Shown here piece after piece: positions 13,884 through 17,547 of a stretch of 64,000 nt of DNA. A program made the translations under genes and the position numbers. The first letter of the stretch is position 1; each line of letters opens with the position of its first letter. Source of the stretch: an uncultured Verrucomicrobia subdivision 3 bacterium (GTDB taxonomy: Bacteria; Verrucomicrobiota; Verrucomicrobiia; Limisphaerales; UBA11358); the NCBI GenBank assembly GCA_903922735.1, contig CAIXUZ010000022.1, forward strand, positions 8,997 through 72,996, in the 5' to 3' direction. Under the pieces are notes generated by a model that did not search any database, had not been told where the DNA came from, and saw only the letters and a list, made by a program, of their open reading frames with translations.

Positions 13884-14942
13884 ATGTCTGTAACAATTGT
13901 TGTCGGCGGCCAATACGGGTCCGAAGGCAAGGGCAAAGTGGTTGCCCTGTTGGCGAAAGAATCAACCTCTCCCTGGCTCGTCCGTTGCGGCGGCCCCAAT
14001 TCCGGTCACACCGTCACGATCGACGGGAAGCCCGTCATCATGCGCCAGGTTCCGTCCTGCTCCGAGCCGGATAAAGCGACTTTTTGCGTGGCGGCCGGCT
14101 GCGTGGTGGACGAGGAAATCCTCCTGCGTGAACTGGATTTACTGAAAATTCCACGAGAACGAATCATTGTGGATCCGCGCAGTGTTTTGGTGACGGAAGA
14201 AGATCGGATGGCTGAAGCCGGCTCTTTGGTCCGAATTGGCAGCACCTGCTCCGGGACGGGGGCAGCCCTGCTGCGTCGGATGTCGCGGGCAAAAGACGTG
14301 CGGCTTTCAAAAGACTCGGCAGCCATCAAGGCGCGCTGTCGCGTTGAAACTGTGGCGACGTTGCTGCATAGCCGGATTGAAGATGGTGGCGACATTATCG
14401 TGGAGGGAACGCAAGGTTTCGCCCTCTCACTTTTGCATGGCCCCGATTATCCCTATGTAACCTCCCGGGACACCACAGCCGCTGGGTTTGCCATGGAAAT
14501 TGGGCTCTCGCCTCGCCAAATCGACAAAATCGTGATGGTCATCCGGACATTCCCGATCCGGGTGGCTGGAACAAGCGGGCCATTCGCCAACGAGTTTTCA
14601 TGGGAACACATTCAAGCCATTTCCGGTGCACCACAAGTGTTGCCAGAATACACGTCGGTGACGAAGCGGTTGCGTCGCGTCGCGCGATTCGATCTCGATC
14701 TCGTGAAGCTCGCTTGCAATTACAATTGCCCAACCAGCTTGGCAGTGATGGGGCTCGACCGGCTTGATTATGCCAACACTGGCTTAACTGCTATCGACGC
14801 ATTGACCTCCAAGGCGCATGTGTTTTTGACTCAAATAGAGCAGGCGACTGATATTCCAATAGAGTTCATTGGCACTGGGTTTGGCACTTTTGACGTGATT
14901 CATGCATTGGTTCCAACCATAAAAACTGATTCACATGGCTGA
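13884..14942 (+). CDS. Adenylosuccinate synthetase family protein, short archaeal/PurZ-like type, with Ser replacing the P-loop Asp
   Basis: Motifs: [84 protein letters not shown]. At 352 aa it is shorter than bacterial PurA (about 430 aa). Confidence 0.8.
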   Translation: [352 protein letters not shown]

Positions 14943-17547
14943 AATTAAACTGAAGGAGCTACGAGAAATTCGTCGACGAGCACAAGAATTGCTCAGGTCT
15001 GTCGATACTGACATAAAGCCTTTTCTACACCAAAAGGATAAGGAGACTTTTCGTCGCAAACCTGAATCAGAATCAATAGAAGGAGATGTGAATGTCACTT
15101 CTAGCTGTTCGTGCCTAATGTCATTGGCACTTTCTAATTCCTTTTGTAAGTTTTACGACGTCGAAGATGCAACCAAAGCCAATCAAAAAGCAAAATCAAT
15201 TCTTGACCGCATTATAGATGCTCCGTGGATGAGTTCCGGTCTTACTGCTAATAATGCCTTCTCAACAGCTTTAGTTCTTCGCACTTATGGCTTTTTAAAG
15301 CAAGAAGGCTTGCTGAAGTTGGCCGACATTAAGCGAAAAGCATGGGAATTAAATTTTGGTTTGAAGCAGGAGAAGATTAGCGATTTTGCCATTTATTTGC
15401 AGACACAGAGTAACGAAACCTCTAAATACTTATATTCCTCACTTTCTGACGGGAGTCGAAGCCTTCTTGCGACTGCTTTACCATCTGCTGCGGAAGAAAA
15501 AGAAAAACATGAAAAGAGGCTTAGCCGATTAATTACTTTAGATCTCCGTCGATTGGTTCAATCCGGGTGGATTTATACAAAAGAAAGATTTCCAAATATT
15601 TCCTCTCCACTCGTTGACGACATAGGCAAACGGCCAACGGGTTATTTGTTAGCGAGGACGAATAAAAGACTATTTGATGAGCAGCTTAAAGAATATTTTA
15701 CAGGTTCATCAGAACAAAACCTTGAGGAAATAGCAGTTCAAATGGCAAAAGACCCAGACAATTTTGCTATTAACCAATATTCAGCGTCAGCAACTGTTCT
15801 TTACTGGTTTGTAGACGGGTTAGAGCGCGGACAAATTCATTTAGACGGGAAAGATTGGGGGCGGTTGTGTGAATGGGCTTGTAACGAATTTAATCACGAG
15901 CGATCTCTTGTGTTGGCCGAGCATGATGCAATGATGGATCCTATCGCTTTGGCTATGGCTGCTTGTCTATGTGCAAAAATACGCAACCTGGCTACGCGGG
16001 ATGATCTTGGCACAGGCAAAGGGCATCGAGAAATGTTACCGTCAATGGCAGAACTCGAGCATTCAATTCTGGAACTTTTCAGGCACCAAGCCACGAGTGG
16101 TATTTGGCCTAAGTATTTCCCACTTTTCCATTATCAAGATGCCGGTTCCAATTTTTGTTTTACTTTTGAAATGCTGGAAGCCGTTTTGAATGAGTTCGGG
16201 CATTCAGAAAACAAATTACTAGATCACGAAGATTTTATTAATGGCATCAAAGCCTCAGTTTTATGGTGCGAGGAGAATCGACTGAAATGCTCTGAAGGCA
16301 AGTCAACATACAGCGGATGGAATTCAGGTGGTGATCTGGAATCACTCGAAAAAGAACGTCCAGAATCGTGGGCCACAGCGGTTGTTCACATGTTTCTTTG
16401 GGAGTTAACAAGTGTTCTCTCACAACATATTCAAAAACGAGTTCTGCAAAAATATGGTGCTCGACAGCCAAAAATGTCCGCTGGGCAGATTCAAGAAGCA
16501 ATCAACAATGACGCCAAATGGAGGGAGCAAAATTTCGGAAGTGCCTTGAGTAAGCTTCAAGACATCGAACTTTTTATCGATCGAAAGCATGACAGCTTAA
16601 TTCGAGTTCTGAAAGAGGAGCTTTTAGATGCCAATTTCGTTAAAACGGAATTGCAGGTTCGCCGAGAAAAAGCAAGTGCTCCTATATCGGCTTTGTTATT
16701 TGGACCACCAGGAACTTCCAAAACACAAATAACAAAAGCTGTCGCCGAAGATTTAGGCTGGCCTATGCTTGTGATTAATCCATCAGAGTTTGTTAAAGGC
16801 AGCTTTGAAAATGTATATTTACAGGCAGAGGACATTTTTACGGACTTAATGGATCTGTCTGCGGTCGTTGTCCTTTTCGATGAAATGGATGCTTTGACAC
16901 AAAAGCGGTCGGATGGCAGCAGCGAATCAGGTGGCAATCATCTTGATACAGCAACGCAATTCTTGACCACCTCAATGTTGCCAAAACTTGCCGACTTACA
17001 TGACAATGGAGGAGTTGTTTTTTTCATGGCGACCAATTTCCAAGAAAACTTCGACCCGGCTATTAAACGTGCTGGTCGCTTTGATCTTCTTCTTTGCATG
17101 GGGCCGCCAAAGCTCTGTGAAAAGATCGAAAAACTGAAGCTGTTTCTAAAGCTGTTTCTAAATCCTGTTCCCCAAAATGACAGCATCGAAGCAGCAAAAT
17201 TAAGACTATACGCGATCTTAGCTAAATCCCCCCCCCATCGCGATATGTTGGAATTGTTTACGTTTGGCGAGTTTAAATCGTTTTTACGGCTCTTTGGAAA
17301 GACTGGTAGCGAAGTTTGTGAAAAGCTTAAGACTTGCAATGAGACAAATTTTTTAGAGCAAGTTGATGATTACAGTAAATCGATTGGTCTAAAGTTTGAA
17401 GACTTAAAACTTTTACTAAAAAATCCAACTGACATTAGCCCCCTCAGTAAGATTGACAAACTGCTGATAACTGACTTAGATAAAATTAAAGGCAAGGAAA
17501 TCGGCAAGTATTTTTACGAACGCCGCTTATCGAAGCGTCAGTTTTGA
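14935..17547 (+). CDS. 870-aa protein: unassigned ~580-aa N-terminal region plus C-terminal classical-clade AAA+ ATPase
   Basis: Walker A LLFGPPGTSKTQ, Walker B VVVLFDEMDAL, sensor-1 MATN, arginine-finger region KRAGRFD. Its ATG overlaps the upstream stop (ATGGCTGA). The gene is low in GC. Confidence 0.8.
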   Translation: MAEIKLKELREIRRRAQELLRSVDTDIKPFLHQKDKETFRRKPESESIEGDVNVTSSCSCLMSLALSNSFCKFYDVEDATKANQKAKSILDRIIDAPWMSSGLTANNAFSTALVLRTYGFLKQEGLLKLADIKRKAWELNFGLKQEKISDFAIYLQTQSNETSKYLYSSLSDGSRSLLATALPSAAEEKEKHEKRLSRLITLDLRRLVQSGWIYTKERFPNISSPLVDDIGKRPTGYLLARTNKRLFDEQLKEYFTGSSEQNLEEIAVQMAKDPDNFAINQYSASATVLYWFVDGLERGQIHLDGKDWGRLCEWACNEFNHERSLVLAEHDAMMDPIALAMAACLCAKIRNLATRDDLGTGKGHREMLPSMAELEHSILELFRHQATSGIWPKYFPLFHYQDAGSNFCFTFEMLEAVLNEFGHSENKLLDHEDFINGIKASVLWCEENRLKCSEGKSTYSGWNSGGDLESLEKERPESWATAVVHMFLWELTSVLSQHIQKRVLQKYGARQPKMSAGQIQEAINNDAKWREQNFGSALSKLQDIELFIDRKHDSLIRVLKEELLDANFVKTELQVRREKASAPISALLFGPPGTSKTQITKAVAEDLGWPMLVINPSEFVKGSFENVYLQAEDIFTDLMDLSAVVVLFDEMDALTQKRSDGSSESGGNHLDTATQFLTTSMLPKLADLHDNGGVVFFMATNFQENFDPAIKRAGRFDLLLCMGPPKLCEKIEKLKLFLKLFLNPVPQNDSIEAAKLRLYAILAKSPPHRDMLELFTFGEFKSFLRLFGKTGSEVCEKLKTCNETNFLEQVDDYSKSIGLKFEDLKLLLKNPTDISPLSKIDKLLITDLDKIKGKEIGKYFYERRLSKRQF

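Follow-up and report, generated by a model that had tools for sequence, protein, structure and literature searches.

A conserved, apparently undescribed gene module with predicted phage-type Z-base chemistry in bacterial defence islands

A 64,000-nucleotide stretch of DNA from an uncultured Verrucomicrobia subdivision 3 bacterium (contig CAIXUZ010000022.1, positions 8,997 to 72,996; hereafter the window) encodes a 352-amino-acid (aa) ligase of the adenylosuccinate synthetase family which, judged from its active-site residues, is a bacterial member of the Ser13 PurZ-type branch, with a clade of its own, and not a PurA. Together with its neighbors, this ligase makes up a conserved and apparently undescribed multigene module that would, with its function predicted from gene content, place phage-type Z-base (2-aminoadenine) chemistry in bacterial defence islands. 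The unit comprises four genes, in which the PurZ-like ligase and an AAA+ ATPase form one pair, facing a convergent pair of a deoxynucleoside kinase (dNK) followed by a 968-aa protein with PHP, DUF429-like nuclease and nucleoside monophosphate (NMP) kinase domains. The genes and domains are as follows (coordinates in the window, strand, feature and basis; AF2, AlphaFold2 model):

13884..14942, +, PurZ-type (Ser13) adenylosuccinate-synthetase-family ligase gene, 352 aa; Pfam PF00709
14935..14942, +, 8-nt stop-start overlap of the ligase and AAA+ genes, ATGGCTGA
14935..17547, +, AAA+ gene, whole, 870 aa
14935..16659, +, N-terminal all-alpha domain of the AAA+ protein, aa 1-575; AF2 model, no family detected
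16693..17094, +, classical-clade AAA module of the 870-aa protein; PF00004
17557..20463, -, gene of the 968-aa PHP / DUF429-like nuclease / NMP-kinase protein; Pfam, NCBIfam, AF2 and Foldseek
18877-19599, -, PolX-type PHP phosphoesterase/exonuclease domain, aa ~289-529 of the 968-aa protein; Pfam, NCBIfam, PolX 3au2
18154-18873, -, DUF429-like RNase-H-fold nuclease domain, aa 531-770 of the 968-aa protein; AF2 and Foldseek
17701-18126, -, NMP-kinase-like P-loop domain, aa ~780-921 of the 968-aa protein; AAA_18/AAA_33, 1uky
within 17557..20463, -, helical region without family, aa 1-260 of the 968-aa protein
20480..21118, -, dNK gene, ~212 aa; PF01712

The start/stop overlap ATGGCTGA implies translational coupling of the ligase and AAA+ genes. 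On the other strand, the dNK gene lies directly upstream of the 968-aa gene with a gap of 16 bp, its start being either at 21118 (MLRLFRM) or at an MSGG 18 nt further downstream, and the two pairs meet tail to tail, the stop codons of the 968-aa and AAA+ genes being 9 bp apart. An earlier sequence-only reading of the window had proposed a two-gene module of a PurA/PurZ-like enzyme and an AAA+ protein. Both of its open reading frames (ORFs), every PurA-like and AAA motif that it quoted (including HQATSGIW) and the overlap are present, and the pair is real, but the unit has to be extended to four genes by the two on the minus strand. It had also stated that no other purine-biosynthesis gene is nearby, which is true, yet two nucleotide kinases are adjacent.

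Active site of the PurZ-type ligase

The 352-aa protein matched the Pfam family Adenylsucc_synt (PF00709) at 4.9e-50 and, in the PDB search, P. horikoshii PurA at 7e-58. Its scores on the NCBIfam models were 293.8 bits for archaeal PurA (NF003295, cut-off 368), 214 bits for TIGR00184 (cut-off 395) and 211.3 bits for the PurZ model NF038379 (cut-off 300), which was built from phage sequences. The ligase was aligned with two PurAs (E. coli, P. horikoshii), one PurZ0 (Arthrobacter phage Lennox) and two PurZ enzymes (Vibrio phage VP5, Acinetobacter phage Bhz9), and all five departures from PurA that are specific to PurZ/PurZ0 are present in it (E. coli numbering):

Residue 13, P-loop: GDEGKGK in PurA, GSEGKGK in the ligase (Asp13 to Ser)
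Residues 127-129: GTT in PurA, GST in the ligase
Residues 134-136: GPA in PurA, GAA in the ligase
Around Val273: TRVG-AG in PurA, IRVAGTSG in the ligase, a 2-residue insertion after Val273
Residues 300-305, Asp loop: TTGRRRR (R303) in PurA, VTKRLRR (SVTKRLRR) in the ligase

The GSEGKGK and TKR departures had already caught the eye of the sequence-only reading, which wondered whether Asp-to-Ser is a PurZ signature. They are real features of the family, Ser13 being present in 27/27 close homologues and the TKR-containing Asp loop being nearly invariant there, and the replacement is a published hallmark: Asp13 is conserved in 99% of PurA, and Ser stands there instead in 100% of 147 phage PurZ/PurZ0 sequences (PMC12884076). 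The structure of S-2L PurZ indicates that Ser23, the aspartate loop and the post-Val insertion distinguish PurZ, which uses deoxyguanosine monophosphate (dGMP), from PurA, which uses inosine monophosphate, and the PurZ reaction consumes dGMP (PMC8342488). The serine is equally constant further out, with 26/26 tier-1 loci, 53/53 tier-2 loci (tiers as defined below) and 80/80 viral relatives; among the 128 nearest 50%-identity cluster representatives, residue 13 is Ser in 123, Gly in 4, Leu in 1 and Asp in 0.

The neighbor-joining tree separates the Ser13 sequences from the two PurAs with a bootstrap of 0.91 and gives the ligase's own clade 0.81. No deposited phage PurZ is more than 39% identical to the ligase, and close members of its family are absent among the 2.9 million viral contigs of IMG/VR, where the best relative has 44% identity. 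Because the ligase falls below both the PurZ and the PurA hidden Markov model (HMM) cut-offs and has no phage Z-cluster context, it is filed as a new bacterial PurZ-type branch and not as PurZ proper. Its predicted activity is the ligation of dGMP and Asp at the expense of a nucleoside triphosphate, giving N6-succino-2-amino-dAMP (dSMP). The Asp at the E. coli D333 position is retained, like in PurZ0 and PurA and unlike in VP5-type PurZ. The published account is internally inconsistent on the donor, its introduction stating that PurZ uses ATP and a later part that PurZ0 and PurZ prefer 'ATP and GTP, respectively' (PMC12884076); no phosphate donor is assigned to the ligase for this reason, even though the D333 equivalent is kept.

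Distribution of the module and a sister operon

Motifs taken from the family alignment were scanned in one genome per species over 185,579 species representatives. They occur at 476 loci, corresponding to ~0.26% of the representatives, and the identity of the ligase between different phyla is 70-89%. Two sets of loci were compared, namely tier 1 (27 loci at 54% or greater identity) and tier 2 (53 loci at 41-48%), in which the partners were found as follows:

AAA+: tier 1, 23/27; tier 2, 3/53
DUF429-like domain: tier 1, 19/27; tier 2, 31/53
NMP kinase: tier 1, 15/27; tier 2, 34/53
PHP: tier 1, 14/27; tier 2, 2/53
dNK: tier 1, 13/27; tier 2, 16/53
dCTP-deaminase/dUTPase-fold protein: tier 1, 3/27; tier 2, 44/53
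RNase_H_2 exonuclease: tier 1, 5/27; tier 2, 27/53

Tier 1 covers Acidobacteriota, Planctomycetota, Verrucomicrobiota, Binatia, Omnitrophota, Spirochaetota, Chloroflexota and one Saccharimonadales bin. The full four-gene set is present in 12 tier-1 loci, with Acidobacteriota, Planctomycetota, Verrucomicrobiota and further phyla represented, and several of the incomplete loci end at contig ends. The proposed pairing of ligase and AAA+ is borne out by the 23 tier-1 loci with an AAA+ gene, at least 15 of which share the same 8-nt start-stop overlap. The distance between the AAA+ stop and the stop of the convergent gene is from -21 to +27 bp in 14 tier-1 loci. Homologous loci on long contigs repeat the arrangement of the window, a dNK of ~199 aa and then a PHP-domain protein of ~970 aa running convergent to the PurZ-like and AAA+ genes. 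Two cultured bacteria carry tier-1 loci: Paludibaculum fermentans T20B24 (L014) has all modules, and in Pirellulaceae bacterium SH501 (L028) no dNK was detected and the PHP gene is co-directional with the AAA+ gene.

When the Ser13 family is taken more widely, the DUF429-like nuclease with a kinase accompanies the ligase more constantly than any other partner, the AAA+ protein included. The typical tier-2 locus is a tight operon in which a protein combining an RNase_H_2 exonuclease, the DUF429-like domain and a kinase is followed by the PurZ-like enzyme, a dCTP-deaminase/dUTPase-fold protein and dNK. The position after the ligase is thus filled by either an AAA+ or a dUTPase-fold protein. A dUTPase motif region is common to the tier-2 dUTPase-fold protein and the Dut-type gene beside PurZ0 in phage Lennox. 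Examples of this sister operon are L051 (7920-12706) and L075 (7911-12704), with a dUTPase-fold protein of ~350 aa whose C-terminal half has no family; hosts include Nitrosospira, beta- and gamma-proteobacteria, Dehalococcoidia and Acidobacteriota. The D333 position is occupied by Asn (LNHLD) in the sister-type PurZ-like enzyme, and likewise by Asn in VP5-type PurZ. In cultured Mesorhizobium qingshengii CGMCC 1.12097 (L083), a tier-2 PurZ-like gene has at most a dUTPase-fold (DCD-like) gene as its sole detected neighbor.

Natural fusions also occur among the 50%-cluster representatives (P0418, P0435, P0471 and P0385 among them). Many representatives join a P-loop kinase to the PurZ-like enzyme (~520-570 aa), and there are also a double-kinase-PurZ-like fusion of 746 aa and a PurZ-like-dUTPase-fold fusion of 644 aa. 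The nuclease, dNK, dUTPase-fold and AAA+ N-domain partners were found in 0/80 viral loci examined.

The AAA+ protein and its exchange

The 870-aa protein is, from its motifs and profile matches, a classical-clade AAA+ ATPase with a large novel helical N-domain. The PF00004 match covers aa 587-720 (3.4e-20), and the nearest solved modules are those of Afg2/VAT/p97 (2e-42 using the family profile). Walker A (GPPGTSKT), Walker B (VVLFDEMD), sensor-1 (ATN), the Arg finger (RAGRFD) and a candidate pore loop (SEFVKG) are all kept in the family consensus. PADLOC matches to IetA, TRIP13 and DolB are confined to the AAA module, which was also the only part matched in the PDB profile search, where the first ~570 residues found no sequence relative. 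The AF2 model of the N-domain is all-alpha (pLDDT 87.4, pTM 0.86), and Foldseek gave it no significant match in PDB or BFVD; the top weak matches in both libraries were (alpha/alpha)6 barrels (E = 0.02-0.1, TM 0.2-0.38). The modeled domain is thus possibly (alpha/alpha)-barrel-like, a faint echo of the alpha/alpha-toroid repeats at which the sequence-only reading had hinted.

The AAA+ gene differs from its partners in composition, with a GC content of 0.416 (0.377 at third codon positions) against 0.46-0.55 for the other three module genes. Its sequence also varies on its own: in the relative L005, identity to the window counterparts is 73-93% for the ligase, PHP protein and dNK and only 42-52% for the AAA+ protein, and across loci the identity of the ligase goes along with that of the PHP protein (rho 0.82, p = 0.001) and not with that of the AAA+ protein. 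Since its GC content is far from that of its partners and its identity is uncoupled from those of the PurZ-like and PHP proteins, the AAA+ gene appears to be an exchangeable cassette, which suggests recent exchange inside an otherwise conserved system. The lower GC content that the sequence-only reading ascribed to both genes of the pair therefore applies in full to the clearly AT-rich AAA+ gene; the PurA-like gene (0.552) is like its neighbors at 0.51-0.55, both genes lying below the backbone value of 0.61.

The 968-aa protein and the deoxynucleoside kinase

The PHP domain of the 968-aa protein was recognized by Pfam (2.1e-11) and by NCBIfam PRK07945 (1e-56), and the family profile matched the PHP domain of T. 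thermophilus PolX (3au2) at 2.9e-52. The metal motifs DLHxHT, TDHS, HGxExD, GSVH, GHP and GSDAH are kept in the consensus. The middle domain (aa 531-770) is the best-conserved part of the protein (AlphaFold pLDDT 80) and resembles the RNase-H-fold nucleases RuvX, MOC1 and RuvC (Foldseek E = 6e-4, TM 0.3-0.5). In 4/4 independent sequences, it gave weak partial matches to DUF429 (PF04250, E 0.0014-0.12) and to PADLOC PDC-S44 (E 6e-8 to 7e-4), and its JGI label is 'predicted nuclease with RNase H fold'. The C-terminal domain is a P-loop domain of the NMP-kinase type, as indicated by its matches to AAA_18/AAA_33 (Pfam) and UMP kinase 1uky and by an ADK match of 1.3e-12 in the L019 orthologue.

The dNK matched PF01712 at 1.9e-28 (100.1 bits against a gathering cut-off of 27) with an intact P-loop, GCIGVGKTT, and its closest solved relatives are the deoxyguanosine kinases 2jaq/2jas (3e-16). 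The copy at L004 (11604-14545) is probably decaying; there, three ORFs of 324, 296 and 278 aa stand in place of the single PHP/nuclease/kinase gene, next to a short dNK of 145 aa.

Genomic setting

Liv-type ABC transporter genes are found on one side of the module. On the other side, a run of genes holds AIPR, a complete Wadjet system (JetABCD), a trypsin-like peptidase, tRNA-Arg, a type I restriction-modification (R-M) system, a GGDEF/Cas10-palm-like gene and an integrase. The features mapped in this run, and one beside the ligase gene, are:

13809..13842, no strand, perfect 11-bp inverted repeat ATTTTGTTTGT / ACAAACAAAAT with a 12-nt spacer; candidate operator or terminator
21955-23577, +, AIPR abortive-infection gene
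23589-24695, -, JetD (complete Wadjet operon, region 21955-30312)
24667-28029, -, JetC
28010-28672, -, JetB
28669-30312, -, JetA
34503-34579, tRNA-Arg(CCG)
35110-37506, HsdR of the type I R-M system
37506-38387, pentapeptide-repeat protein, inserted between hsdR and hsdM
38371-39894, HsdM
39891-41003, HsdS
40882-41886, GGDEF / Cas10-palm-like protein
44269-45381, tyrosine integrase

The region from 34503 to 45381 looks like a separate integrated defence islet. The GC content is 0.61 in the backbone at 46-64 kb and 0.51-0.55 in the genes local to the PurZ-like gene. In a census of the flanks of 18 tier-1 loci (113 ORFs), we found integrases, transposases and strong matches to PglX, PglW, BrxL, HmaB/C and LmuB, as well as to type I and IIG R-M, AbiEi, SoFic and MADS proteins. 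The defence-island setting that had been suspected from AIPR and Wadjet beside the pair is thus met again in other genomes, and it is the pattern of defence islands and mobile elements; the four-gene module is horizontally mobile and, in the window, lodged in a defence island.

Between a 174-aa ORF and the ATG of the PurZ-like gene, the inverted repeat at 13809-13842 directly adjoins a promoter-like site (13845-13873). The repeat could act as an operator or terminator and is at most a tentative part of the four-gene system; the promoter and terminator scans performed at chance level, with 9 promoters found against 8.8 expected. Two ORFs bordering the module were considered as members and dropped, neither being conserved with the module and neither having a family. 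The 174-aa ORF (13269-13793, +), taken for a helix-turn-helix gene by the sequence-only reading, has no such match, nor any other in Pfam, NCBIfam or PADLOC, and no counterpart adjoining the module in any other locus. The 328-aa ORF beyond dNK (21223-22209, -) is likewise without a family match and without a counterpart adjoining the module in other loci, and it may be no real gene because it overlaps the AIPR start by ~250 nt.

Proposed mechanism

Putting the gene content together, we tentatively favor an infection-triggered rewiring of the purine deoxynucleoside triphosphate (dNTP) pool, which would drain dG nucleotides and make a non-canonical dNTP, with the AAA+ protein as gate. On infection, dNK would make dGMP from deoxyguanosine, and the nuclease domains may also free dGMP from DNA. 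The PurZ-type ligase would join dGMP and aspartate to form dSMP, which host PurB would convert into the Z deoxynucleoside monophosphate (dZMP), as during Z-phage infection. The fused NMP kinase would then make the diphosphate and host Ndk the triphosphate (dZTP), and the altered purine deoxynucleotide pool would corrupt or stall phage DNA replication, with the nuclease domains either feeding deoxynucleoside monophosphates (dNMPs) into the pathway or attacking the resulting DNA. The AAA+ protein, the most variable part of the module, may serve as a sensor or gate that would keep the co-translated ligase inactive as long as no phage cue is present. For the sister type, the dUTPase-fold protein could have the role of DutZ, making dGMP out of dGTP and eliminating dATP.

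The coherence of the pathway is argued from the dNK, which is closest to deoxyguanosine kinases, from the fused kinase, which is NMP/adenylate-kinase-like, from the natural kinase-PurZ-like and PurZ-like-dUTPase-fold fusions and from the sister operon, which mirrors the pairing of PurZ0 with DutZ in PurZ0 phages (PMC12884076).

Several observations weigh against this proposal. The archaeal PurA model gives the ligase a higher score than the PurZ model does, with both scores under their cut-offs, and the backbone support of the tree is below 0.1, so that the tree does not show a specific sister relation to phage PurZ; the substrate specificity is read from sequence alone. The formation of dZTP would depend on host enzymes because the module holds no PurB or Ndk. 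The kinases are hard to square with pure depletion, and the nuclease domains are without an obvious place in pure biosynthesis. The proposal gives no reason for incorporated Z to harm the phage more than the host, and the AAA+ and dUTPase-fold proteins share one slot yet cannot do the same job. In addition, the flank census was made without a formal genomic background control.

A related explanation, possible but rather less probable than the rewiring of the pool, is that a phage Z-genome pathway has been turned into a weapon, in which 2-aminoadenine or succino-2-aminoadenine deoxynucleotides would mis-modify phage DNA, the nuclease domains might 'mark-then-cut', and an AAA+ sensor would gate the process. 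Phage PurZ could also have had its source in this bacterial Ser13 family; we make no claim on the direction of transfer between phages and bacteria because the neighbor-joining tree does not separate the deep branches.

Next, and unlikely in our estimate, comes pure depletion, with the ligase as an irreversible sink of dGMP, and hence of dGTP, that starves phage DNA synthesis and leaves Z nucleotides as an irrelevant by-product. Nucleotide depletion is an established defence logic (anti-phage dGTPase, dCTP deaminase), and the kinase domains of the module weakly resemble that of the anti-phage dCTP deaminase. The ligase reaction would indeed consume dGMP (PMC8342488), which the sister-type dUTPase-fold partner could produce from dGTP, like DutZ. 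However, dNK and the NMP kinase build nucleotides instead of removing them, and still both are kept in the module, with kinases occurring even as fusions with the ligase; host PurB would, moreover, carry dSMP onward.

It seems quite unlikely that the module lies outside immunity, as a mobile-element or niche unit for deoxynucleotide salvage or DNA scavenging, or as a relic or component of a Z-DNA-using element. Such a role would fit parts that all act on DNA ends or deoxynucleotides, the frequency of integrases and transposases among the neighbors and the patchy spread over 476 loci in 185,579 species representatives. But no DNA polymerase, replication or virion genes accompany the module, the close family is absent from the 2.9 million viral contigs, the neighbors are predominantly defence systems, and a classical AAA+ unfoldase has no salvage role.

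Signal production is very unlikely. In this case, the ligase and kinases would make a succinylated or 2-amino purine deoxynucleotide messenger that activates the nuclease effector or the AAA+ protein, a thought prompted by nucleotide-making enzymes fused or adjacent to nuclease domains and by the translational coupling of ligase and AAA+, which suggests a complex. Its logic is comparable to that of the nucleotide-signalling system Kongming and of the m6-dAMP-triggered PUA-Cal-HAD system. Against it, no recognizable small-molecule sensor domain was found in the module, dNK, the ligase, the NMP kinase and the dUTPase fold look metabolic and not signalling, and host PurB would destroy dSMP.

Finally, a housekeeping role as the short archaeal-type PurA of the organism, with a tolerated Asp13Ser and coincidental neighbors, is extremely improbable and was rejected on active-site, distribution and context grounds, for although the best single HMM and PDB matches are to archaeal PurA and the 64-kb window contains no second PurA homologue, the ligase shows five concerted changes of the PurZ type in its active site, one of which removes the essential general base, scores under the equivalog cut-off, keeps its high identity between phyla in a family carried by so few species representatives, and sits in a conserved neighborhood.

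Implications

Until now, PurZ was seen as an invention of phages, which replace adenine by 2-aminoadenine and thereby evade host restriction, and published PurZ phylogenies mention merely a few basal archaeal Ser/Gly sequences (PMC12884076). We have now found a large PurZ-type family that is highly conserved in bacteria of many phyla and that, inside defence islands, forms fixed operons with an AAA+ protein, nucleases and nucleotide kinases. This makes the module a candidate immune system with a chemistry unused by any described defence, points to a plausible cellular origin for phage PurZ, and offers potential new enzymes for the synthesis of Z or succino-purine deoxynucleotides. Whether hosts manipulate non-canonical purine dNTPs against phages becomes a directly testable question, as cultured carriers exist.

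Comparison with known systems

Membership in a known system (RADAR, Iet or any PADLOC v2 system) was rejected: PADLOC gave no match for the ligase and only AAA-module matches for the ATPase. No paper was found that links adenylosuccinate, PurA-like proteins or PurZ with defence, dNK or PHP, and the DefensePredictor and domain-centric discovery papers do not mention the domains of the module, which is therefore undescribed in the searched literature, as the sequence-only reading had suspected. No defence system found in PADLOC or in this literature uses the predicted ligation of dGMP and Asp.

RADAR consists of a ~900-aa ATPase, RdrA, and a purine-converting adenosine deaminase, RdrB, in defence islands. 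The analogy to it that had been drawn from the sequence holds for logic alone, both pairing a large ATPase with a purine-nucleotide-converting enzyme; the module has no RdrA/RdrB match in PADLOC and no homology to either protein, its enzyme is a ligase and not a deaminase, its ATPase is of the classical AAA clade, and it has two further obligatory genes. Gao Iet (IetA AAA+ with the protease IetS) and TRIP13 of CBASS share the classical AAA module (IetA 4e-14, TRIP13 7e-8). However, the score on IteA_antiphage (45.3 bits) is far under the cut-off of 510, the unit contains neither an IetS subtilisin-like protease nor a HORMA partner, and the 575-aa N-domain is unrelated. With anti-phage dCTP deaminase, dGTPase and prokaryotic viperins, the module would share action on (deoxy)nucleotide pools; unlike these pool-depleting and poison-nucleotide defences, it has no deaminase, HD-dGTPase or radical-SAM domain.

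Archaeal PurA (P. horikoshii, PDB 2d7u/5k7x; NF003295) is in the same length class, without the insertions of bacterial PurA, and has the highest overall similarity to the ligase, but it keeps Asp13, GTT, GPA, TRVG-AG and TGRRRR, all of which are changed in the ligase. Phage Z-clusters combine PurZ with DatZ/MazZ or DutZ/DmtZ and with DpoZ, whereas the module has the AAA+ protein, the PHP/DUF429-like/NMP-kinase protein and dNK instead of DatZ, MazZ and DpoZ. Unlike phage PurZ/PurZ0, the module is chromosomal in bacterial defence islands, its partner genes being found in none of the viral loci; like them, its ligase belongs to the same family and has Ser for Asp13, GST, GAA/MAA, the post-Val insertion and the TVTK(K/R)hRR Asp loop, and the ligase and dUTPase-fold protein of the sister operon resemble the PurZ0 and DutZ of PurZ0 phages. 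As a short description of the predicted system, a PurZ-type dGMP-using enzyme under ATPase control, as it was first called from the sequence, is still fair.

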